64,000 nt of DNA from Candidatus Omnitrophota bacterium (GTDB taxonomy: Bacteria; Omnitrophota; Gorgyraeia; 2-02-FULL-51-18), in NCBI GenBank assembly GCA_945877765.1, contig CAMDWQ010000008.1, forward strand, positions 13,774-77,773. The letters run 5' to 3'. The translations under genes and the position numbers were made by a program. Positions 2,674 to 63,900 of the stretch are shown here, one piece after another. The notes beneath the pieces were generated by a model. The model ran no database searches. It was given only the letters and a program-made list of their open reading frames with translations, and had not been told where the DNA came from. Numbering within the stretch: the stretch's first letter is position 1; the number at the start of each line of letters is the position of its first letter.

Positions 2674-3804
2674 ATGTCTTCCCGTAAGCGCGACTATTAC
2701 GAAGTCCTGGGTGTGGGCCGCTCTGCGGACGCCGATGAAGTAAAAAAGGCGTTTCGCAAAGCGGCTTTAGCCCACCATCCCGACCGAAATCCAGGCGATA
2801 AAAAAGCCGAAGATAATTTCCGGGAAGCCAGCGAAGCCTACCAAGTTCTTTCCGATCCCCAAAAACGTCAGATCTACAACCAGTACGGCCATGAGGGTTT
2901 AAACGCCAATGGCGGGATGGGAGGCGGTTTTTCCTCGTCTGGTTTTGAAGATGTATTCGAGGGAATTTTTGAGGATTTCTTCGGTGGCAGCGGCGGAGGC
3001 CGAGGCCGGTCCCGTGCCGCGCGCGGCAGTGACCTTCAGTACGAGATCGAGATCTCATTTGAAGAGGCCGCTTTTGGTGTCCAGAGATCAATTGATCTAA
3101 AACGCGAAGAAACCTGCGGCAACTGCCGCGGCGAGGGCGCTAAGCCCGGTACCTCCAAAAAAACCTGTCCCACTTGTCACGGACAGGGGAAAGTTCTGAC
3201 CTCGAGCGGTTTTTTCAGCATTTCCCGTCCCTGCAGCCGTTGCAATGGCGAAGGGGTGATGATTGAACATGCTTGCAGCGTGTGTCGAGGCTCCGGCCGA
3301 GTAGTCTCCGACAGAAAAATTGAAATTAAAATTCCCCCAGGCATTGATGCCGGCCAGAGGCTTCGCATGAACGGGGAGGGCGAAGCAGGCGTGCGCGGCG
3401 GCCCTCGTGGCGACCTCTACATCGATATTCACGTCGAACCCCATGAATTTTTTAAACGCGACGGCAACAAAGTCATCTGCGCTGTCCCCATCAGTTTTGT
3501 GGAAGCCTCTCTTGGCTGTGAAATCCAAGTCCCAACACTCTCCGGCAATCACGAGCTTAAAATTCCCGCTGGCACACAAAATGGAAAAGTATTTAGACTA
3601 AAAGGGAAGGGTATCGCATCCTTGCAAGGCCATGAGTTGGGTGACCAGGAAGTCCAAATCCTCATCGAAACCCCCACACATCTTTCTGATAAACAAAAAG
3701 AGCTGCTTAAACAATTCGCCACACTTTCGAATGAAAAAGTAAACCCCATCACGTCCTCATTTATGGAAAAAGCCAAAAAACTATTCTCAAAAGAGGACAA
3801 ATAA
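2674..3804 (+). CDS. dnaJ: Co-chaperone DnaJ
   Basis: J-domain with HPD motif (HHPDRNPGD), a Gly/Phe-rich linker, and four CxxCxGxG zinc-finger repeats ([32 protein letters not shown]). Confidence 0.95.
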
Positions 3805-3806
3805 AC

Positions 3807-4085
3807 ATGCCCACCTACGAATATAAATGCCTCAAATGCAAAAAGCATTTCGATAAACTCCAAAGCATGAGCGAAAAACCACTTAAGAGCTGCATTTACT
3901 GCAAAGGCAAAGTCGAGCGCCTCATCGGCGGCGGAGCAGGACTTATCTTTAAGGGTAGTGGATTTTACATCACGGATTATAAGAATAAATCCACCTCAGG
4001 ATCAGCTTCGGACTCGAGCAAACCTAAAGAAACTAAAACGGATAGCGCGCCCGTTAAGAAAGTGGAGAAGACGGATAAGAAATAG
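3807..4085 (+). CDS. FmdB-family zinc-ribbon putative regulatory protein with a Ser/Lys-rich tail
   Basis: MPTYEYKCLKCKKHFDKLQSMSEKPLKSCIYCKGKVERLIG...KGSGFYITDY matches the FmdB/CxxC_CxxC_SSSS family consensus (YEYxCxxCG…CPxCG…GxGFY). It begins 3 nt after the dnaJ stop. Confidence 0.75.
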   Translation: MPTYEYKCLKCKKHFDKLQSMSEKPLKSCIYCKGKVERLIGGGAGLIFKGSGFYITDYKNKSTSGSASDSSKPKETKTDSAPVKKVEKTDKK

Positions 4086-4261
4086 TGTTGCGCCAGGGCC
4101 TGGCCGGGAAATCTTTTCGGGCCGGCGTTAAATTTGCCCCACCGTGGCAAATTAAACTCGGAGATGAGAGCTCGCTCGTCCCGTCTATTACGACGGGACA
4201 CCATGGCCGCTCGCCTCATCTACGCGTCCCAAAAAGATTTCCCGGCCACCCGGCGGGGTGC
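4086..4261 (+). repeat. Copy A of a ~176-bp palindromic, multi-hairpin (MITE-like) repeat
   Basis: 16-bp terminal inverted repeats GGCCGGGAAATCTTTT (4103-4118) and AAAAGATTTCCCGGCC (4232-4247). Outer arms gtgttgcgccRgggcctg and cacccggcgSggtgc. Internal hairpins ttaaatttgcc/ggcaaattaaa and gtcccgtc/gacgggac lie inside a gatgag/ctcatc stem. It is about 90% identical to the reverse complement of 5186-5363 and to 59044-59217. Confidence 0.65.
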
Positions 4262-4327
4262 GCAGTGTCACCGCAACCAAGGCTAACGAGGTCTGGCAAT
4301 ATTGTTGGAATCAAAAGGATAGATATA

Positions 4328-4990
4328 ATGACTCATCAAGAAACGCAGAAATCATTTTGTAATAGATGTAAGAATATGAATAAGCATATTGTTCGGTATA
4401 AAAAAGTTGAACATGAATCCGAAGAAATTGACGAAGGATTTTCAGTTGAATGGGCTTATACTTACTATCTTTTAGAATGCTCTGGGTGTGAAGAGTTGTC
4501 ATTTTGTAAAGAAACTTTTTGGCCAAATGAATCTGTGGACATGGAGTTTTACCCACCTCGTGTTTCTAGAAGTAAACCTATTTGGTTTGATCAATTGCCC
4601 GAAGAATACCAAGAAATCCTCTCTGAAATTTATTCAGTTCTGCATATGGATAATCGTAGACTTGCGATGATGGGCGCGCGGTGTGTCATAGATTTGTTTA
4701 TTACTCGTAAAGTTGGCGATCAAGGAAGATTTGATCTAGGTATGAAGATGCTCGAAGCAAAAGGGTACATAAGCAATAAAAATGCTATTTTTTTGAAGGC
4801 CGCTGTTGAAATAGGACACGCGTCAGCCCATCGTGGTCATAAGCCGACTATTACAAACGTTAATTCTGTCATTGATATTGTCGAAAATTTACTTCAACAA
4901 GGCGAAGTTCTATCCAATTCTGCAAAACTTCTCAAAAAATCAACTCCCAGAAGAAAGCGACTTAGCAGGCGTGCTGTTGGGAAGAATTAG
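4328..4990 (+). CDS. Hypothetical protein with an N-terminal CxxC…CxxC zinc ribbon and a C-terminal DUF4145-like domain; possible defence or horizontally acquired cargo
   Basis: ATG at 4328 is preceded by AAGGA and a gatataat box. The N-terminus has CNRC…CSGC. The C-terminal segment …MLEAKGYISNKNAIFLKAAVEIGHASAHRGH fits the DUF4145 pattern (conserved A and H, GNxAAH-like). Codon usage is markedly AT-richer than the neighbours. The track ORF 4085-4990 N-terminal extension is read-through of repeat A. Confidence 0.6.
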   Translation: MTHQETQKSFCNRCKNMNKHIVRYKKVEHESEEIDEGFSVEWAYTYYLLECSGCEELSFCKETFWPNESVDMEFYPPRVSRSKPIWFDQLPEEYQEILSEIYSVLHMDNRRLAMMGARCVIDLFITRKVGDQGRFDLGMKMLEAKGYISNKNAIFLKAAVEIGHASAHRGHKPTITNVNSVIDIVENLLQQGEVLSNSAKLLKKSTPRRKRLSRRAVGKN

Positions 4991-5185
4991 CTTTTTTATT
5001 ATATCAATTGTACATAATATCCCCGTTTGGGCAGATCGGGAAGACGTGTTGTTTCTATGTTGAGCGGAGGAATATACTCTCTTTATTCGCCAAGCGAATA
5101 AAAGCCGCTGAAAGCGGCGGCAGGGGGGCATTTTTTTTGCACGAGCCTGCCAGAGAGTGCGAGTGTATAAAAGTTCTACACAATT

Positions 5186-5363
5186 GCACCGCGCCGGGTG
5201 GCCGGGGAATCTTTTTGGGACGCGTAGATGAGGCGAGCGGCCACGGTGTCCCGTCGTAATAGACGGGACGAGCGAGCCCTCATCTATCGAGTTTATTTTG
5301 CCTGGGCGGGGCAAAATAAACGCCGGCCCGAAAAGATTCCCCGGCCAGGCCCCGGCGCAACAC
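5186..5363 (-). repeat. Copy B (inverted orientation) of the ~176-bp palindromic repeat
   Basis: Reverse complement of 4086-4261 at about 90% identity. TIRs are GGCCGGGGAATCTTTTT (5200-5216) and AAAAGATTCCCCGGCC (5331-5346). The internal hairpin is ttattttgcc/ggcaaaataa, a compensatory variant of copy A. Confidence 0.65.
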
Positions 5364-5543
5364 CTATGCCACTGCACCATCAGAGCCCCTCACTTACGTT
5401 AATCGTAAAAAATTAAGAAAATAGTTTTGACGAAAACCGGCCTTTCTGTCGTCAAGTAGGGTAGAGGGAGGTCTTCATAATGCCAATAGAAGATAACGTT
5501 ATTGCCACTTGCACAGTATACGTTAATATGGTATATTTTAAAC

Positions 5544-5837
5544 GTGATTGTTAGTTTTGGGGATCAGGCGACGGAAGATATGTTTCACGGGATGTCTTCC
5601 AAAAAGGCGTTGAGAGCGGTGCCTGTCGATCTTTGGAGAGTGTCCCAAAGAAAGCTTGATATGTTGCACGCTGCCCAGGATTTAATTGATCTGAGGGTTC
5701 CACCTAACAATCGCCTTGAGAGCTTAAGAGAGGATCTCGAAGGTTATTATTCAATACGCATTAATGTTCAGTACCGACTTATTTTTAAATGGGCACCAGG
5801 CAGTGCTTCCGAAGTGCAGATCGTTGATTATCATTAG
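5544..5837 (+). CDS. higB: HigB-like toxin (RelE/ParE superfamily, plasmid-maintenance killer protein PF05015 type)
   Basis: …IVSFGDQATEDMFHG…YYSIRINVQYRLIFKW…VQIVDYH matches the HigB-2/PF05015 consensus (SFKxKxxExLF.G … IRINxQWRxxF … IxDYH). The start is uncertain: GTG at 5544 was chosen so the protein begins at the conserved N-terminus. The track ORF begins at ATG 5502. Confidence 0.7.
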   Translation: MIVSFGDQATEDMFHGMSSKKALRAVPVDLWRVSQRKLDMLHAAQDLIDLRVPPNNRLESLREDLEGYYSIRINVQYRLIFKWAPGSASEVQIVDYH

Positions 5838-5846
5838 GAGAAACAA

Positions 5847-6119
5847 ATGATCCCGACCAATAGAAAACCCAGTCATCCCGGCGAAATACTCCTGACGGAG
5901 TTTTTGGAGCCACTCAAAATGAGCCAGTCCGAATTGGCCAAAAAAATGGGTGTGCCTATTCAGCGTGTGAATACGCTTATCAATAAAAAAAGAGGGGTGA
6001 CGGCCGAGACCGCCATTCTTCTGTCTGAAGTATTAAAAAATACCGCAGAATTTTGGATGAACCTGCAGGCTATCTACGATCTCTACGAAGCGCGCCAGAC
6101 TCTTAAGAGCGCAGCCTAA
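5847..6119 (+). CDS. higA: HigA antitoxin (XRE-family HTH)
   Basis: SHPGEILLTEFLEPLKMSQSELAKKMGVPIQRVNTLINKKRGVTAETAILLSEVL…FWMNLQAIYDL is the typical HigA HTH_XRE sequence. It lies 9 nt downstream of higB and follows an AGGAG Shine-Dalgarno sequence. Confidence 0.8.
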   Translation: MIPTNRKPSHPGEILLTEFLEPLKMSQSELAKKMGVPIQRVNTLINKKRGVTAETAILLSEVLKNTAEFWMNLQAIYDLYEARQTLKSAA

Positions 6120-28919: not shown

Positions 28920-30857
28920 ATGGCATTTTTTAAAAAATCTTATTTTTGTTTCCCCGGAGTTCTTGTTTTAGTTTTGTTTTGGACATCGACCGGCTATGCC
29001 GAGCTCACTAGCGGCATGGACGCGGATGTAGTCATTGGAGAGCCGGATTTCGTGACGGACACGACCGGGGTTAGTCAGACGCAGTTCAACCAACCTCGCG
29101 ACGTGTTCAGCGACGGCCAGAGGCTCTTTGTTTCAGATTCGAGAAACGGTAGAGTGCTCATTTACAACTCTATCCCTCGCGACAATTTTGCGGCCGCCGA
29201 CGTCGTACTGGGACAAAATAATTTCAGCACAAGAAATTTTGGCACTTCGCAGACGCTGATGCAGGATAGGGTTTGCGGCGTTTTCAGCGATAGGCAAAGG
29301 CTTTTTGTGGCGGATGCGTTCAACAACCGTGTGTTGATCTGGAATGGTATTCCTAGCGCCAACGGAACGCCCCCCAGCATTGTCTTGGGACAGGCAACAT
29401 TTATTACGAGCGGGGTTGCGGTCACGCAAAGCGACCTATCGGTTCCACGAGCGGTTTATTCGGACGGCAAAAGGTTAATTGTATCCGATTGGGGAAATAA
29501 CCGCGTGCTGATTTGGAATTCGATCCCCACCACCAATAAAGCGCCAGCCGATATCGTTCTCGGTCAGCCGAATTTCACATCGAACAGCGCTCGCACCACC
29601 CGGAATGGGATGAGCACGCCGTGGGGGGTTACTTTTGACGGTCAGAGGCTTTATGTGGCGGATCAGGCGAACAGCCGTGTTTTGATCTGGAATTCCTTGC
29701 CTACGGTGAACAACGCCCTTCCCGACGTGGTTCTTGGACAGCCGAATTTTAACACGGCTGTTCCAGGCGCGGGGCCACAGCGGATGGACAACCCAATTTC
29801 GGTCGCCTCAAACGGCAAGTCCCTTTTTGTGGCGGATATCAACAACTCCCGGATACTCGTTTATAATTCCATTCCGACGTCCAATTTCCAGGCGGCTGAC
29901 GCTGTCATCGGACAGCCTGATTTAGACAATAAGACTACGGGATTGGCAAGAAACCGGATGAACGCGGCATTGGGGATCTCTTTTGACGGCCGGCGCCTGC
30001 TTGTGGCCGATCAGACGAATAGCCGCGTACTTCTTTTTAATATAGGCGAAAACGCTGCCCTTGACCTCGGCCCCCAATTCAACCAAGGCAAAGGGGTCTT
30101 GGGAAAGGTTTTTAATGATGTGAATAGCAATGGGACTCAAGACAATGCCGAGAAGGGAATGGAAGGCATCAAAATCGCCTCTGATACCGGCATCTACGCC
30201 ATCACCGATGAAGACGGCAAATATCATTTTCCTTATATTGAAACTGGCCAGCGGATATTAAAGATAGACGAAGCCACTCTCCCCGAGGGAAGTATTATTA
30301 CCACAGAATCTCCCAGAAAAACAGTTGTTACTGAGGGCATTCTCACTAAGATCTCTTTTGGAGTTAAACTCCCTCCCAACACCACGACGGGTGGCGCCGG
30401 AGGGGAGGCCTCCGCCGCGCGGAGCGAAAATTTACACGAGCACGGCGGAGTCCCGCAGGTGACGACGCAAAGGCCGTCAAGGCCGAAGCGAAGTGCTGAC
30501 CGTACGGACGGTCGGCCCGGACCCGTCGCAGCACCTCTACTTAAAACCACTCTCTCTCAAGACCCCGTCCTCCTAAAACCCACTCTCTCCATCGAAGCAA
30601 AGCTTGAAAACAACAACGTCGTGTTTACCATTCAGACCAACTACCATCTTTTCATCGAATCCTCAGAAATAATTCTCTACACAAAAGATCTAAAACCGTT
30701 TAAAAAGATTCCTCTGCCAAAACCCATCCCTTACCAATACACCCTAAAAAAAGAAGAGCTTCCTCCCAACCAAGAAACTCTCCACTTCCAGCTTTCTGTC
30801 AAGGACAAGCAGGGGAGGGAGGATAGGACGGGAGTCGGGAGTGTGGTTCTCTTTTAA
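28920..30857 (+). CDS. Secreted six-bladed NHL-repeat beta-propeller protein with an SdrD B-like (Cna-B type) domain and a Pro/Thr-rich linker
   Basis: Signal peptide. Six tandem ~58-aa repeats of the form SDGQRLFVSDxxNNRVLIWNSIPxxNxxADxVLGQPNF (NHL-like). Then …VFNDVNSNGTQDNAEKGMEGIKIASDTGIYAITDEDGKYHF, an SdrD-B/Cna-B motif. It starts 1 nt after the previous stop. Confidence 0.65.
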   Translation: MAFFKKSYFCFPGVLVLVLFWTSTGYAELTSGMDADVVIGEPDFVTDTTGVSQTQFNQPRDVFSDGQRLFVSDSRNGRVLIYNSIPRDNFAAADVVLGQNNFSTRNFGTSQTLMQDRVCGVFSDRQRLFVADAFNNRVLIWNGIPSANGTPPSIVLGQATFITSGVAVTQSDLSVPRAVYSDGKRLIVSDWGNNRVLIWNSIPTTNKAPADIVLGQPNFTSNSARTTRNGMSTPWGVTFDGQRLYVADQANSRVLIWNSLPTVNNALPDVVLGQPNFNTAVPGAGPQRMDNPISVASNGKSLFVADINNSRILVYNSIPTSNFQAADAVIGQPDLDNKTTGLARNRMNAALGISFDGRRLLVADQTNSRVLLFNIGENAALDLGPQFNQGKGVLGKVFNDVNSNGTQDNAEKGMEGIKIASDTGIYAITDEDGKYHFPYIETGQRILKIDEATLPEGSIITTESPRKTVVTEGILTKISFGVKLPPNTTTGGAGGEASAARSENLHEHGGVPQVTTQRPSRPKRSADRTDGRPGPVAAPLLKTTLSQDPVLLKPTLSIEAKLENNNVVFTIQTNYHLFIESSEIILYTKDLKPFKKIPLPKPIPYQYTLKKEELPPNQETLHFQLSVKDKQGREDRTGVGSVVLF

Positions 30858-41882: not shown

Positions 41883-41908
41883 AAATACTCCGCAACGTCA
41901 CCAACAAC

Positions 41909-41981
41909 GTCATTCCCGAATGTTTTAATCGGGAATCAAACCGATACATGATCCCCGATAAAAAATTTCGGGGATGACATT
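41909..41981 (+). promoter_or_regulatory. Copy 1 of a 73-nt double-hairpin motif
   Basis: gtcATTCCCGAatgttttaaTCGGGAATcaaaccgatacatgATCCCCGAtaaaaaattTCGGGGATgacatt. It lies 27 nt after the gatB stop and ends 3 nt before the deacetylase ATG. It has the same architecture as 56130-56202, but with the two stem sequences exchanged between hairpins. Confidence 0.5.
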
Positions 41982-53972: not shown

Positions 53973-54030
53973 TAAATTCGAAGCGCGAAATTCGAAATCC
54001 GAAACAAATTCGAATTTTCGAAAATTCAAT

Positions 54031-54130
54031 AACCAAAACAACTGTTTCGAATTTTGATATTCGAATTTCGAATTTGTTTAACCATAACAACTGTTTCGAA
54101 TTTCGATATTCGAATTTCGAATTTTGTTTT
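54031..54130 (+). repeat. Tandem ~50-bp direct repeat (2 units) rich in palindromic TTCGAA motifs
   Basis: Unit 1 (54031-54079) is aaccaaaacaactgtttcgaattttgatattcgaatttcgaatttgttt. Unit 2 (54080-54130) is aaccataacaactgtttcgaatttcgatattcgaatttcgaattttgtttt. The flanking 53977-54030 is also ATTCGAA-rich and includes the perfect 12-mer palindrome aaattcgaattt. Confidence 0.5.
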
Positions 54131-55536: not shown

Positions 55537-56149
55537 TCTTGATTATTTAAATCAGGGATTTAAATCCCTGGCGGGCGTGGATGAAGCGGGGCGCGGGCCA
55601 TTGGCCGGTCCTGTAGTTGCTTCAGCCGTGATCGTCAGGGATTTTTCATTTTTTTCAACGGTCAATGACTCGAAGAAAATGACGGCGAAAGCGCGCGAAC
55701 GCGCCTATGAAGAAATTTTGACAAAATGTGTGGTGGGAATCGGAATTATTGATTGCCATACGATTGATAGAATTGATATTTATCAAGCCACGCTTCGAGC
55801 GATGGAAGAGGCGGTGATGAAGCTTGGCGAGGTGCCGGACGTCATCTTGGTGGACGGGCCCAAAACGCCAAATTTGCCGTTTAGGCAGGTGCCGATTGTG
55901 GATGGGGACGCCATCTCATTTTCGATTGCCTGCGCGTCCGTGGTGGCGAAAGTCACGCGTGACCGCATGATGGAACATTACGCCGAAGAATTTCCGCAGT
56001 ACGGTTTTGAGAAGCACAAAGGTTATGGGACCAAGAGCCATATGGAAGCAATCAAGAAAAATGGTCCCTGCAAAATTCACCGCAGGAGTTTTGAGCCGAT
56101 AAAGTCTTTAATAAAACAGGGGGCCAACTGTCATCCCCGAAATCTTTAA
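55469..56149 (+). CDS. rnhB: Ribonuclease HII
   Basis: [21 protein letters not shown]…DSKKM…VDGPKTP are RNase HII catalytic motifs. TTG 55469 was chosen, about 32 aa upstream of GVDEAGRG. The track's 55349 start would overlap rplS by 188 nt. The last 7 codons overlap hairpin 1 of the double-hairpin motif. Confidence 0.8.
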
Positions 56150-56202
56150 TCGGGGATCAAACTTAGGAATGATTCCCGATAAAAAAATTCGGGAATGACA
56201 TT
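56130..56202 (+). promoter_or_regulatory. Copy 2 of the 73-nt double-hairpin motif
   Basis: gtcATCCCCGAaatctttaaTCGGGGATcaaacttaggaatgATTCCCGAtaaaaaaatTCGGGAATgacatt. It spans the rnhB stop (56147-49) and ends 9 nt before the guaA ATG. Relative to copy 1, the ATCCCCGA and ATTCCCGA stems are exchanged between hairpin 1 and hairpin 2. Confidence 0.5.
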
Positions 56203-57811: not shown

Positions 57812-58057
57812 ATGGAACATTTAAGTATTACGTTTCCCGTGGATCTGCGCAAAGAGGTAGACCGTTGCGCTAAGCTTGAGCACACCAAAAGGAGCACCCT
57901 GATCCAGAAAGCGGTGAAGGTGTATCTGGGTCTTAAATACAGGGCTCAACTTGAGCAAGATCTGAAAGCGGGATATCTTGAGATGGCGGGCGAGTCTCAA
58001 AACTTGATGGACGAATTCAAAAATATCGATGCAGAGTCTTGGAAGTATGCCGGTTAA
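57812..58057 (+). CDS. Ribbon-helix-helix (CopG-like) antitoxin
   Basis: 81 aa. The N-terminal beta-strand and helix pattern (HLSITFPVDLRKEVDRCAKLEHTKRSTLIQKAVKVYL) is typical of RHH antitoxins. It overlaps the downstream PemK/MazF toxin gene. Confidence 0.7.
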   Translation: MEHLSITFPVDLRKEVDRCAKLEHTKRSTLIQKAVKVYLGLKYRAQLEQDLKAGYLEMAGESQNLMDEFKNIDAESWKYAG

Positions 58058-58391
58058 AAGAGGGGACATTTTTTGGGTCAACTTGGATCCGGTCAAGGGT
58101 TCTGAGCAGGCCGGGAAGCGCCCCGTGATCGTCATTCAAAACAACGTGGGCAACGCATTGGCTTCCACAACCATCATCGCGCCTCTCACCACCAAGATAT
58201 TTTCTAAAGAGTACCCGACCAACGTGATGGTCCTCAAGGGAACCGCGGGACTTAAGGAGAATTCGACGATTCTTTTCTCGCAGATTAGGGTGATCGATCA
58301 ATCCAGACTTGAGAAAAAAATAGGAGTTTTGCCGTCAACCTACACACACCGGGTCGATACAGCCATCAAAAACAGTTTAGGAGTCCATTAA
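58047..58391 (+). CDS. mazF: MazF/PemK-family endoribonuclease toxin
   Basis: MPVKRGDIFWVNLDPVKGSEQAGKRPVIVIQNNVGNALASTTIIAPLTTK…SQIRVIDQSRL matches the PemK/MazF consensus (RGDIxxVxLDPxxGxEQxGxRPxLVxS…ViVxPiTs). The track ORF begins at 58029; the ATG at 58047 is preferred. Confidence 0.8.
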   Translation: MPVKRGDIFWVNLDPVKGSEQAGKRPVIVIQNNVGNALASTTIIAPLTTKIFSKEYPTNVMVLKGTAGLKENSTILFSQIRVIDQSRLEKKIGVLPSTYTHRVDTAIKNSLGVH

Positions 58392-59043: not shown

Positions 59044-59217
59044 GTGTTGCGCCGGGGCCTGATCGGTAAATCTTTTCGGGCCAGCGCTCTTTTGCCCCTC
59101 CGAGGCAAAATTCGCTCTAAAGACAAGCTCGCTCGTCCCGCTATAAAGAACGGGACTCCATGGCCGCTCGCTTGTCTAAGCGTCCCAAAAAGATTTCCCG
59201 CTCACCCGGCGCGGTGC
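59044..59217 (+). repeat. Copy C of the ~176-bp palindromic (MITE-like) repeat
   Basis: gtgttgcgccggggcctg…atcttttcggg…cttttgcc-cctccg-aggcaaaa…gtcccgc-tataaagaa-cgggac…gcgtcccaaaaagatttcccgctcacccggcgcggtgc. It is in the same orientation as copy A. Its internal hairpins carry compensatory changes. Confidence 0.65.
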
Positions 59218-59369
59218 TACGCTTTCCATAGCCTCACCCCAAGTTAATCGATATACAAATTCCTGAAAATAATCCTGACGAAAAGTAGGTTCTCTGTCGT
59301 CCTGTAGAGTAGATATGGAGGACTATATAATATGGCTAGAAATATGTATAAAAGTATGGTATTATTTCC

Positions 59370-59651
59370 ATGGAAGTAGTATCAGGTAGTTTTTGTTGGG
59401 ATGAATTCAAAGAGGACCAGAATATCTTGAAGCATGATGTTTGTTTTATCGCGGCTTCGAAAGCATTTTTCGACCCAAGTTGTTCGGTATTCAAAGATGA
59501 TGCGCATAGTTCGGTAGAAGAAAGATGGTTTTGTATTGGGATGGTCGATGGCAGGCCGATGACCGTTCGGTTTACTTATCGCGACCAGAGGATTCGTATT
59601 ATTGGAGCAGGCTACTGGAGAAGCAGAAGGAGGTATTATTATGAAAAATGA
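59370..59651 (+). CDS. brnT: BrnT toxin (DUF497 ribonuclease)
   Basis: FCWDEFKEDQNILKHDVCFIAASKAFFDP…DDAHSSVEERWFCIGMVDGRPMTVRFTYRDQRIRIIGAGYW matches the BrnT/DUF497 pattern (FEWDxxKxxxNxxKHGVxFxEA…DxxHSxxEER…G……RIISAR). Confidence 0.75.
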   Translation: MEVVSGSFCWDEFKEDQNILKHDVCFIAASKAFFDPSCSVFKDDAHSSVEERWFCIGMVDGRPMTVRFTYRDQRIRIIGAGYWRSRRRYYYEK

Positions 59652-59886
59652 AATTTTTGATGAGAATATGCCCCATGGGAAGCTTACGAGGGTTGAGAAT
59701 TTTTTGCCGCCGCCGAGTGAATTGATCATGCCTGAACAGCCGGTGAAAGTCACGATGATACTGAATAAACCCATCGTTGATTTCTTTAAACAGCAGGCGC
59801 ATCGGCATCACACCAAATATCAGCGGATGATACGTGAAGTGCTTGGGCAATATATGAATCAATACAAAGATCCGAAGGCAGCCTAA
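59641..59886 (+). CDS. brnA: BrnA antitoxin (RHH-containing)
   Basis: ATG 59641 follows GAAGGAGG. …VKVTMILNKPIVDFFKQQAHRHHTKYQRMIREVLGQYM matches BrnA (…IRLDxDVLDWFKxxGxGYQTxINxxLRxYM). It overlaps the brnT stop by 11 nt. Confidence 0.7.
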   Translation: MKNEIFDENMPHGKLTRVENFLPPPSELIMPEQPVKVTMILNKPIVDFFKQQAHRHHTKYQRMIREVLGQYMNQYKDPKAA

Positions 59887-60320
59887 TGCCAAAGCTTCGT
59901 TTAAAGATAAATTCGTTGAACGACAAATGGCACGACAGGGATGAGATTCTTCTCCACGCGTCATTTCAGATACTTGCTGACTTTATGGAGAAAGAGAAGC
60001 CTGGTAAGATCATTGACTGGAGCCACTATAAATTACACCGCCAGACTTGGAAAGAAATGAATTCTCTTTATTCTTGGTGGAAAAAAGAGAGGCCAAGCAG
60101 AAAAGATCCGATAGATGACAAAAGGGTGATTCACCCGCCATTTAAAACTGAGAAGAAAGAGGGAGAAAATTTTTCGCGTATGGTTGTGCCGGATAAGAAA
60201 AAATATGCCGCTTATTATCGGGCGCTAAAACGGTCTTGGAGGGTTGAAGACAAATGGAATGAAGAAGATCAGAAGAATTTGCATCGACTTATCCAGATTA
60301 GACATTTTTTGTGGACTTGA
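59886..60320 (+). CDS. Hypothetical Trp/Lys-rich protein (144 aa) translationally coupled to brnA
   Basis: Its ATG overlaps the brnA stop (TAATG). There is no recognisable homology. The gene is AT-rich like the brnTA DNA. Confidence 0.5.
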   Translation: MPKLRLKINSLNDKWHDRDEILLHASFQILADFMEKEKPGKIIDWSHYKLHRQTWKEMNSLYSWWKKERPSRKDPIDDKRVIHPPFKTEKKEGENFSRMVVPDKKKYAAYYRALKRSWRVEDKWNEEDQKNLHRLIQIRHFLWT

Positions 60321-60989: not shown

Positions 60990-63900
60990 ATGAAGCCATC
61001 ATTTACTCATTTACACGTTCACACCAAATATAGCCTACTGGATGCCGTTTGCCACATCGAAGATCTTGTCGAAGAGGCGAAAGCGTTTGGGATGCCGTCG
61101 ATTGCGATCACGGACAATGGCAATATGTTTGGGGTGGTTGAGTTTTACAGCGCTTGCAAAAAAGCGGGGATTAAGCCCATCATTGGCGCCGAGGTGTATG
61201 TCGCGCCGGAGAATCGTTTTGAGCGCGCGACCCACGGTCTTCAGGGCGCTTCCTATCCGATGGTGCTTCTCTGTGAAAATGACCTGGGCTATTACAACCT
61301 TGTCCAGCTGGTCAGTATTGGATTTTTGGAAGGATTCTACTACAAGCCGCGCGTCGACAAAGAAATGCTTCGCAAATATTCCAAGGGCTTGATCGCTCTC
61401 TCCGGGCCTCTCCGCGGAGAGATTCCCCACAATCTTAATTTGGGTCAGCCCGACAAAGCCACCAAAGCGGCGCTGGAGCTCCAAGAAATTTTTGGCAAAG
61501 AAAATTTTTACCTAGAAATTATTCATAGCGGCCTGCGAGAGCAAGAAAAAGCCAATGAGGAGATGATCAAACTCTCCAAAAAATTAGACATCCCCCTGAT
61601 CGCCGCAAATGATGTGCACTATTTAAAGCGTGAATACGCTCGTGCCCACGAGGTGATTACCTGTATTCAGTCGCAGCATACACTGGACGACCCTAAAAGA
61701 TTTCGTTTAAACACCGATGAATTTTATTTTAAAAGTCCCGAAGAGATGATTCGTAGTTATAAAGATACTCCCGAAGCTATTGAAAATGCGGTAAAAGTGG
61801 CGGAGCGCTGCAAGGTAGAATTTGATTTTACCAAGACCCATGTGCCGATTTTTGAGCCGCCTCCAGGAAAGACCCGCGAGGATTATTTTTGGGAATTGAT
61901 CCAAGCGGGTCTGGCCGAGCGCTATCCCCAGATCACCGATGTGATCAAAAAACGCGTCGAGCATGAATTTGAAGTCATCAAAAAAAGCGGTTATGTCAGC
62001 TATTTTCTCATCGTTTGGGATTTTGTGCATTTTGCCAAAAAAAGCGGGATCCCGGTGGGACCCGGCCGCGGATCTGCTGCGGGAAGTGTGATTAGTTACG
62101 CGCTGGGCATCACCGACATCGATCCTTTGCCTTACGATCTTCTGTTTGAGCGCTTCTTAAATCCTGAGCGTGTTACCATGCCGGATATCGATATTGATTT
62201 TTGCTATGAACGGCGCGATGACGTGATCAAGTATGTCACGGATAAATATTCTTCCGACAACGTGGCACAGATCATTACGTTCGGGACGATGATGGCCAAG
62301 GCCGTGATTCGCGATGTGGGGCGTGTGATGAATATGCCTTACTCCGAAGTGGACAGGATCGCTAAGCTGATTCCCACAGAGCTTGAAATTACCATCGAAA
62401 TGGCTCTTGAAAAAGAACCGGAGCTAAAAGCACTTTACAAAACCAATCCTCAGATAACTGAATTGATTAACACCTCCCAGATCCTGGAGGGAATGGCGCG
62501 TCACGCCTCAACGCATGCCGCCGGGGTCGTCATCAGCCAGAAACCATTGCGGGAACACGTGCCGCTCTACAAGACGGCCGACGGCGATATTTCGACGCAA
62601 TTTGGGATGGAGTCGCTGGAAAAGATAGGCCTTCTCAAAATGGATTTCCTGGGCCTGCGCACACTGACCGTCATTGACGACACGCTAAAAATTATTAAGC
62701 GCATCCAAAAAAAAGAGATTCGCTGGCGCGATATCCCGCTGGATGATAAAAAAACTTTTGACTACTTATGCAAAGCGCAGTCGATCGGCGTGTTTCAGCT
62801 GGAAAGCTCAGGGATGCGTGACATTTTAAAAAAATTGAGGCCGGATAAATTTGAGGATTTGATCGCGATCTTAGCGCTTTACCGGCCGGGCCCCATCGGC
62901 TCGGGCATGGTGGATGATTTTATCAAGAGGAAACATGGCGTTGTTCCGATCGTGTATGACCACCCGCTTTTAGAGCCTATTCTCAAAGACACTTACGGCA
63001 TTATCGTCTTCCAAGAACAGATCATGAAGATTGTGAACATCTTAGCCGGCTTCTCTCTGGGCAAATCCGATTCGTTGCGCCGCGCGATCTCCAAGAAGAA
63101 AGAAGATATCATGCTCGAAGCGCGCAAGGATTTCGTCGAGGGCTGCGCCAAAAACAAGATCGATACGAAGATCGCCGACAAAATATTTAATTTCATTGTC
63201 CACTTTGCCGGTTATGGTTTTAACAAATCTCACTCTGCCGCGTACGCGATGATTTCCTATCAGACCGCTTATTTAAAAGCCAACTATTCAGTCGAATTTA
63301 TGACAGCACTTCTCTCCTCGGAAAAAGACAACACCGATAAGGTCGTGTTGTATATTGACGAAGCTAAGCGTATGGGGCTTCAGGTACTGCCGCCGGATGT
63401 GAATGAAAGCTTTCCGCAGTTTACCGTAGTGGGAGCTGACACCATCCGTTTTGGTCTGTCGGCCGTAAAGAACGTGGGGCAGGCCGCCATTGACGCCATT
63501 ATTCAGGGCCGTATCAAACAGAACCGCTTCAAATCTTTTTATGATCTGACTGAAAGCGTGGATCTACGTGTGGTCAACCGCAAAGTGCTTGAAAGTCTGA
63601 TCAAATGCGGGGCATTTGACACGATGGGAATTTTTCGCTCGAGATTGTTTGAGGGTCTTGACCGGGCCTTAAGTCGTGCCGGCCAATCCCAGAAGGATAA
63701 ATCCAGCGGACAAATTTCATTTTTTGATTCTTTTGACCAGGCTAAGAGCCCTGACGGAGCCGACGATATGCCTGATATCCCGGAGTGGGAGGAGAGTGTT
63801 CGCTTAATCAATGAAAAGGAAATGCTCGGGTTTTATGTCACGGGTCATCCATTGGACCGCTACCGCAAAGAACTTAAAAGTTACTCGACCGTCAACTCTG

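Follow-up and report, generated by a model that had tools for sequence, protein, structure and literature searches.

In the integron site attI1, the open reading frame (ORF) ORF-11 has a Shine–Dalgarno (SD) sequence 8 bp before its ATG, takes its stop codon from the inserted cassette, and couples translation to cassettes that lack an initiation region of their own (PMC8876359). [quoted passage not shown] In Mycobacterium tuberculosis, the predominant type of toxin-antitoxin (TA) transcript is reported to be leaderless, with a compact architecture (PMC3898074, PMC8485053). Here, we describe a block of ~90 nt that is found at two TA loci, upstream of higBA and upstream of brnTA, in a 64,000-nt stretch from Candidatus Omnitrophota bacterium (contig CAMDWQ010000008.1 of assembly GCA_945877765.1, positions 13,774 to 77,773; hereafter, the window).

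The movement of minimal type II TA modules, which consist of a promoter and two genes without mobile-element hallmarks, between core-genome sites is poorly understood. A sequence common to the upstream junctions of two unrelated cassettes could mark an insertion mechanism. IS1397 and the IS200/IS605 family target their insertion to hairpins or REP elements: IS1397 and ISKpn1 insert into BIME palindromes, and the ends of IS200/IS605 elements are hairpin-guided. The layout of the block is reminiscent of such insertion. We favour, with about even confidence, a reading in which two TA cassettes were acquired independently and the block is their upstream junction, neither promoter nor operator but a relic of a common insertion history.

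Two homologous blocks upstream of higB and brnT

A blastn comparison of the window with itself pairs positions 5398–5481, upstream of higB, with 59243–59331, upstream of brnT (blocks A and B; Table 1), at 70.8% identity over 89 columns and an E-value of 2e-5. A recount of the same alignment gives 65 identical columns of 89 (73%). The Smith–Waterman score of the pair is 51, compared with 17.2 ± 2.3 in mononucleotide shuffles and 17.0 ± 2.5 (maximum 29) in 1000 approximately doublet-preserving shuffles. An earlier sequence-only reading of this DNA had described the two upstream regions as homologous at 60–65% identity and had proposed shuffled controls as a check. The homology is borne out at ~14 standard deviations above the shuffles and survives both shuffle types, and the lower identity is consistent with our values, since the full spans score below the 71–73% core. 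Among 1477 pairs of 180-nt regions upstream of the window's genes (mean score 16.9, 99th percentile 25), the higB/brnT pair ranks second; the sole pair that outscores it shares a 73-nt MITE-like repeat. A nhmmer profile built from both blocks found no third copy within the window.

Every motif listed in the sequence-only reading is found at corresponding positions in both blocks. The inverted pair TGACGA and TCGTCA that it described is also present, but the spacer is 15 nt rather than ~10 nt, and the second arm in copy B reads TCGTCC. Identical runs of 9, 9, 8 and 7 bases occur in the block alignment, and their clustering is no more than expected by chance (P 0.15–0.37).

Table 1. Coordinates of the blocks, the TA modules and the adjoining repeats in the window
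Feature	Position	Strand	Details
Block A	5388–5474	+	CCTCAC to GGAGGTCT; blastn core 5398–5481; 40% G+C, non-coding
Block B	59232–59324	+	CCTCAC to GGAGGACT; blastn core 59243–59331
CCTCAC motif	5388 (A), 59232 (B)		
GTTAATCG motif	5398 (A), 59243 (B)		
GAAAATA motif	5417 (A), 59265 (B)		
TGACGAAAA-N8-TCTGTCGTC motif	5428–5453 (A), 59276–59301 (B)		
GGAGG motif	5467 (A), 59317 (B)		
ATAAT motif	5477 (A), 59327 (B)		
Inverted repeat TGACGA-N15-TCGTCA, block A	5428–5454		7-bp arms if extended to TTGACGA/TCGTCAA
Inverted repeat TGACGA-N15-TCGTC(C), block B	59276–59301		Second arm TCGTCC, 5/6 bases
Short ORF, locus A	5467–5554	+	GGAGG 5467–5471, 8 nt, ATG 5480; 24 codons; stop 5552–5554, 8 nt past higB GTG
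Short ORF, locus B	59317–59379	+	GGAGG 59317–59321, 10 nt, ATG 59332; 15 codons; stop 59377–59379, 7 nt past brnT ATG
higBA promoter (predicted)	5509–5537	+	−35 TTGCAC 5509–5514, 17-nt spacer, extended −10 TGgTATATT 5529–5537
higB	5544–5837	+	GTG start, no SD, 6 nt after −10; Pfam PF05015, E 1e-18
higA, HTH_3 antitoxin	5847–6119	+	Pfam PF01381
brnTA promoter/operator (predicted)	59326–59365	+	−35 TAGAAA 59337–59342, 17-nt spacer, extended −10 TGgTATTAT 59357–59365
brnT	59370–59651	+	ATG start, no SD, 4 nt after −10; Pfam PF04365, E 1.9e-20
brnA-type antitoxin	59641–59886	+	Weak BrnA/CopG-type Pfam match
176-nt repeat, copy 1	4085–4261	−	No block on either side; flanks unlike blocks
176-nt repeat, copy 2	5186–5363	+	Tip facing block A, ...GGCGCAACAC
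176-nt repeat, copy 3	59044–59217	−	Inverted relative to copy 2; tip facing block B, ...GGCGCGGTGC
Spacer, repeat copy 2 to block A	5364–5387		24 nt; unrelated to the corresponding 14-nt spacer of locus B
DUF4145 gene	4330–4990		Between repeat copies 1 and 2; Pfam

Promoters and extent of the TA modules

The gene assignments of the sequence-only reading hold for HigB, HigA and BrnT, which are confirmed by Pfam; the BrnA match is weak. Homologues (96 amino acids, 100% query coverage) support GTG as the start of higB. ACGTTA operator-like half-sites surround the predicted higBA promoter, including one at 5495 and one on the opposite strand at 5538–5546, and the brnTA operator region holds three ~12-nt AATATG-type repeats.

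A HigB homologue with 66% identity belongs to a module between rbfA and truB in another organism (L016), and a BrnT homologue with 67% identity belongs to a module directly after the uvrA stop codon, also in other organisms (L017 and L018). Similarity of these modules to the window at the DNA level begins at 5506 in the first case and at 59326 in the second, and the DNA shared with the homologous modules comprises only ~40 nt of proximal promoter/operator and the genes themselves. Because the similarity starts only at these positions, the block lies outside both TA modules. Upstream of the shared DNA are a different GC-rich palindrome in L016 and uvrA in L017, and a further TA homologue from a GC-rich organism (L047) has no block. 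By this comparison, each TA module is a self-contained cassette of a predicted ~40-nt promoter/operator and two genes, and relatives of both cassettes occupy unrelated genomic sites without the block. The block had been described as promoter-proximal; in a functional sense that description was not borne out, as each module has its own promoter downstream of the block.

Because the extended −10 ends 4–6 nt before an SD-less toxin start codon, the architecture suggests that the TA transcripts are leaderless. If so, the higB transcript would start with GUG. The distant homologues in L016 (235–275) and L017 (1957–2003) also have an extended −10 whose end lies 4–6 nt ahead of an SD-less toxin start, with the sequence TGgTAGATT in L017.

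Two further observations concern the operons themselves. The 9-mer TACGTTAAT of block A (5395–5403) recurs in the higBA operator region (5519–5527), and block B has AAGTTAATC where block A has TACGTTAAT. Given this recurrence and the ACGTTA half-sites, HigA might also touch block A, although coincidence is possible. At the brnTA locus, the ATG of an ORF of 144 amino acids (ORF144; 59886–60320) overlaps the brnA stop codon (TAATG), making it a translationally coupled third gene of the operon. This ORF has no Pfam match; 12 assembly contigs carry it, and the homologous L017 module does not have it.

The palindromic repeat adjoining each block

The three copies of the 176-nt repeat share 81–92% mutual identity, and, folded as DNA, the repeat forms a very stable three-way, Y-shaped hairpin at −70.3 kcal/mol (z = −11.2). 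From the end of the adjoining repeat, the distance is 24 nt (A) and 14 nt (B) to CCTCAC, or 34 and 25 nt to GTTAATCG; measured to the latter, the sequence-only statement that the block begins 25–34 nt from a repeat end is reproduced. So is its statement that the repeat is oppositely oriented at the two loci, which extends to the distinguishable tips.

The left flanks of repeat copies 2 and 3 show no homology beyond a generic GCCGC...GCGGC terminator stem. Insertion of the repeat into a longer ancestral block was rejected, as these flanks are unrelated. Several metagenome and assembly contigs end inside the repeat; because assembly contigs tend to break there, the repeat is suggested to be multicopy in the genome. 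Its wider distribution was traced through spurious ORFs called across the repeat, for which a word-indexed search found nothing. When a repeat-spanning ORF was used in an exhaustive phmmer search, its sole matches were the ORF of the window itself and an unrelated protein of low-complexity tandem repeats (P0185), and the pattern of the repeat had 0 matches in IMG/VR.

Several side observations touch on the repeat. Its arms stay paired despite differences between copies, as in GATGAGGC/GCCCTCATC in copy 2 and GACAAGC/GCTTGTC in copy 3. With copies 1 and 2 in inverted orientation around the DUF4145 gene and its terminator (4262–5185), the arrangement is like a MITE-flanked composite unit. The window differs from the metagenome-assembled genome (MAG) GCA_947444795.1 at 21 positions over 9.8 kb, 14 of which are clustered in a Zn_ribbon_8 gene and repeat copy 1 (3791–4231); this clustering suggests local recombination or mis-assembly at copy 1. 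Just before higBA in L016, a different GC-rich long hairpin is found at 118–225 (RNA fold −56 kcal/mol), and one of its termini, GTCGCGACGGGGCCTG, resembles the tip GTTGCGCCGGGGCCTG of the 176-nt repeat. The match between the L016 palindrome and the repeat terminus is marginal (score 28 versus 16.3 ± 2.5, with a shuffle maximum of 30) and is not relied on here.

Distribution of the block

A scan for TGACGAAAA-N8-TCTGTCGTC returned eight matches in GTDB (185,579 representative genomes, one per species), 16 in JGI metagenomes and 0 in IMG/VR. The GTDB and JGI matches are ascribed to chance because only the 18 specified bases agree, mostly in coding-looking DNA. Searches by blastn in distant mode gave no match among PLSDB plasmids with the repeat and block of both loci, or among INPHARED phages with the repeat and block of locus A. 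No further block was found up to 10 kb beyond the locus on each side; the count of two copies thus refers to the window and its extensions.

The sequence-only reading had proposed that the upstream regions of all TA loci in the genome be aligned. None of those compared carries the block, which is no general feature of TA loci: the pemIK-type module at 57812–58391 and the vapBC module of L043 (8349–8989) are preceded by short regions that contain no block and no repeat, and L016, L017 and L018 are likewise without the block.

The window is 99.8% identical to MAG GCA_947444795.1 and 100% identical to several ENA and Logan assemblies. Contigs recovered for HigA, BrnT, DnaJ, DUF1015, GrpE and ORF144 are all of the same strain (99.8–100% identical), and the contig of the single relative at 89% identity (L040) ends within dnaK. 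From these comparisons, the block is most likely a lineage-specific, non-coding, two-copy dispersed sequence of ~90 nt.

A proposed relic of insertion junctions

The order of repeat, block and TA cassette is found twice, and both cassettes start at the 3′ edge of the block; in B the junction falls at 59325/59326, and in A it lies somewhere from 5475 to 5505. The window holds three repeats, three TA loci and ~58 junctions between genes; with these numbers, it is very unlikely that this order arose twice by independent coincidence, which implies a shared history or mechanism. As stated above, we hold with about even confidence that the block is the upstream junction of two independently acquired cassettes.

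Under this reading, the block would be the remnant of a common insertion context. In one form of the proposal, it would be a ‘landing pad’ in the few permissive, repeat-rich intergenic spots of a co-directional housekeeping region; in the other, it would be the outer end of a shared vehicle. The two blocks would since have drifted to ~72% identity, with no particular motifs detectably constrained. Activity of the block today would most likely be incidental. For example, the GGAGG-ATG short ORF could couple toxin translation to itself on read-through transcripts.

Several points weigh against a passive relic. Only two copies of the block are known, so neutral drift and weak constraint are hardly separable. 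The triple association is stronger than a passive ‘junkyard’ model predicts, which hints at a targeted process; support for such a process was not found, as there are no exact flanking repeats of at least 8 nt and no recombinase was seen nearby. Finally, the junction between block and cassette at locus A is bracketed only to the interval 5475–5505.

In practical terms, the analysis locates the TA promoters, which are compact and probably leaderless, and sets aside the idea of an integron-like promoter cassette.

Alternative explanations

The best-surviving alternative, which we nonetheless judge unlikely, is that the block acts as a translational platform similar to attI1 with ORF-11. Ribosomes on read-through transcripts from co-directional genes upstream would translate the short ORF, end 7–8 nt past the toxin start and re-initiate on the SD-less toxin, and the block would be under selection as a working component of a site that captures cassettes. 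At both block edges, GGAGG stands 8 and 10 nt before an ATG, and both short ORFs traverse the non-homologous TA promoters and overlap the toxin starts at 5544 and 59370, neither of which has an SD. This arrangement is rare in the window: an SD-preceded, out-of-frame upstream ORF that ends 3–20 nt after the first base of a start codon occurs at three of 56 gene starts, two of which are higB and brnT. In addition, ORF-11 of attI1 is a documented analogue (PMC8876359). The two loci are, however, not independent observations, because the SD and ATG belong to the homologous stretch. Same-frame short ORFs that start inside the module are open in L016 and L017 without an SD; AT-rich operator DNA may therefore leave this frame open incidentally. 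Upstream of the short ORFs no promoter is predicted, the −70 kcal/mol repeat hairpin stands between the upstream genes and the block, TA modules elsewhere work without the block, and the N-termini of the two short peptides are unrelated.

It is distinctly unlikely that the block is a shared cis-regulatory site, whether an operator for a common regulator (TGACGA-N15-TCGTCA) or an alternative-sigma promoter, that places both TA operons in one regulon. What speaks for such a site is that the inverted repeat and its exact spacing are kept in both blocks, that GACGA-N10-18-TCGTC occurs three times in the window against 0.47 expected, with two of the three in the blocks, and that CATAAT and TATAAT stand at the 3′ edges of the blocks. 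Yet no −35/−10 pair is properly spaced, conserved runs of this length are to be expected at 73% identity, and a 2-nt indel separates the inverted repeat from ATAAT. The ATAAT of copy B belongs to the brnTA operator repeats that are common to L017, the intergenic DNA of the 64 kb holds no further sites, and two neighbouring TA loci lack the block.

Promoter, operator and RNA identities were also tried individually. A sigma-70 scan of the + strand found no site inside 5364–5500 or 59218–59336; its sites fall at 5502/5510–5537 and 59337–59365. The TTGACG at 5427–5432, which the sequence-only reading had predicted as a −35 element, has no −10 partner at 16–19 nt, and the hexamer 17 nt on is CGTCAA. 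The block as a sigma-70 promoter of the TA operons was rejected for want of a −35/−10 pair with proper spacing. Its identity as a TA autoregulatory operator was rejected because it is not conserved with the modules in L016, L017 and L018, and when sigma-54, extracytoplasmic function (ECF) sigma, integration host factor (IHF) and hix-like sites were checked by eye, none fitted. On the + strand, the two blocks have fold z-scores of −0.87 and +1.07; on the − strand, the values are 0.0 and +1.2. Rfam gave no match in the blocks at the gathering score or at E<=5. A structured cis-regulatory RNA or small RNA was rejected, as the folds are no more stable than those of shuffles and Rfam has no match.

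We consider it very unlikely that the block makes up the end segment of a mobile element carrying TA cargo, whether as a MITE, as the end of a transposon or as a palindromic end of IS200/IS605 type, or that it is an att-type recombination site. The TA cassettes do sit between housekeeping genes, the block holds a subterminal imperfect palindrome, and a large hairpin stands close by at a roughly fixed distance; the second end, however, was not found. Exact direct or inverted repeats of at least 8 nt are neither shared between the block region and the sequence downstream of higA or brnA-ORF144 nor found flanking the block and TA cassette, and no target-site duplication is visible. The DNA downstream of the two cassettes has no common sequence, and a 19-nt inverted match at 61879–61897 lies inside dnaE and is not significant. 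There is no similar hairpin downstream of the cassettes; in the window, the hairpin motif occurs only in both blocks and at one coding-region site. The two intergenic sites lie between Zn_ribbon_8 and DUF1015 genes and between the Gly-zipper gene and the zf_Tbcl_2/dnaE genes. The genes annotated around both loci comprise housekeeping genes such as grpE-dnaK-dnaJ, accD, guaA, dnaE, rho, prfA, a murA-type gene and trmD, the TA genes and DUF4145 (by Pfam). No recombinase, integrase or transposase was seen near either locus among the genes examined, all of which lie outside the middle of the window (20–47 kb).

Specific element types were considered in turn. A MITE was rejected because the ends of the block have only 4–5 nt of CCTC/GAGG complementarity, without a visible target-site duplication, and there are two copies in the window and its extensions and none in the public collections searched. 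An IS200/IS605-type element was rejected for lack of a left/right pair of subterminal hairpins and of TnpA or TnpB near either locus. An integron was rejected because no intI was seen among the genes examined around the loci, the tips of the 176-nt repeat do not fit attC cores, and the copies are in mixed orientation: of the tips GCACCGCGCC... and ...GGCGCAACAC, compared with RYYYAAC/GTTRRRY, one lacks AAC/GTT and the other has GCGCAAC on the wrong side. The suggestion in the sequence-only reading that a repeat-plus-promoter cassette had been re-used in front of different TA cargos is not supported, given that the repeat is inverted between the loci, copy 1 has no block, no integrase or transposase is found among the genes examined, and no attC fits. 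The other suggestion of that reading, in which the repeat targets a conserved site next to TA promoters, may hold, and so may targeting of a common site by the TA cassettes.

A more elaborate proposal, which we rate as highly improbable, would make the repeat and the 90-nt block a chromosomal capture site for promoter-bearing TA cassettes. These would be inserted at one fixed point of the block's 3′ edge by trans-acting or novel recombination, and, by analogy with ORF-11, the short ORF would control translation of the SD-less toxin on read-through transcripts. If true, this would amount to an integron-like platform without a linked integrase, and would provide a mechanism by which minimal TA modules move, which has long lacked an explanation.

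That the block is a mere part of the 176-nt repeat, or that the similarity is due to chance, is almost certainly wrong: both blocks lie within 25 nt of a repeat copy, but they adjoin opposite repeat tips across unrelated spacers of 24 and 14 nt, their alignment scores ~14 standard deviations above shuffles, and copy 1, with no block on either side, excludes within the window that the block belongs to the repeat in every copy, as the sequence-only reading had allowed.

Other features of the neighbourhood

Two further TA modules were observed in the region. The pemIK/mazEF-like pair at 57812–58391 lies between guaA and a Gly-zipper gene, and the vapBC (PIN) pair of L043 (8349–8989, or ~64520–65160 in window coordinates, past the window end) lies right after dnaE. 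In all, there are four TA modules in ~65 kb of otherwise housekeeping, almost wholly co-directional genes.

Additional repeats are dispersed in and around the window. A second palindromic family of ~73 nt, with the ends GTCATYCCCGAA...TTCGGGRATGAC and 82–84% identity, occurs in both orientations at 41906–41981 and 56129–56202. Outside the window, its members are found in L019 (1230–1302), L040 (3532–3604 and 21–54) and L041 (1–71). A third repeat of ~140 nt, 92% identical, lies at 30387–30526, inside a long predicted ORF (28920–30857), as well as in L019 (153–292) and L040 (2455–2594); one copy, outside the window, is upstream of miaA. Upstream of trmD, 54030–54124 is a tandem duplication of the 46-nt unit TAACCAAAACAACTGTTTCGAATTTTGATATTCGAATTTCGAATTT with a 49-nt period and 96% identity.

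Comparison with known systems

The proximal promoters of the two operons resemble those of the leaderless type II TA operons of M. tuberculosis, as the −10 elements of higBA and brnTA lie 4–6 nt before an SD-less start. The likeness concerns the 40-nt proximal promoter and not the block, and here the promoters are predicted from sequence; in brnT, moreover, the 4-nt gap from the −10 to the start is below the usual optimum.

With attI1 and its ORF-11, the loci share a fixed platform sequence just upstream of the inserted cassettes, in which an SD stands 8–10 nt before an ATG and the body and stop codon of the ORF come from the cassette. In both cases the short ORF terminates where a gene without its own ribosome-binding site starts, or overlaps that start. 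Unlike attI1 integrons, the loci described here have no integrase gene seen nearby, no Pc-type promoter and no attC sites, and the cassettes bring their own promoters. The repeats are also oppositely oriented, and only two putative instances are known.

The layout also recalls palindrome-targeted insertion by IS1397/ISKpn1 and by IS200/IS605 elements, in that accessory DNA lies 14–24 nt from a large stable palindrome, in either orientation. Unlike in those systems, no transposase, second end or cleavage motif was found, and the distance to the palindrome is not constant.

Measured against the generally known features of MITE, REP/BIME, ERIC and Correia elements, the block differs in lacking terminal inverted repeats, a target-site duplication and a significant fold, and only two copies of it are known. 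Unlike Correia elements, it supplies no recognisable promoter. As in those families, it is short, non-coding, lineage-specific, intergenic and diverged, and it lies near gene starts. The setting is similar as well, since the genome that carries it holds several other small palindromic repeat families. The block is thus best filed as a lineage-restricted addition to the broad class of small dispersed intergenic sequences.

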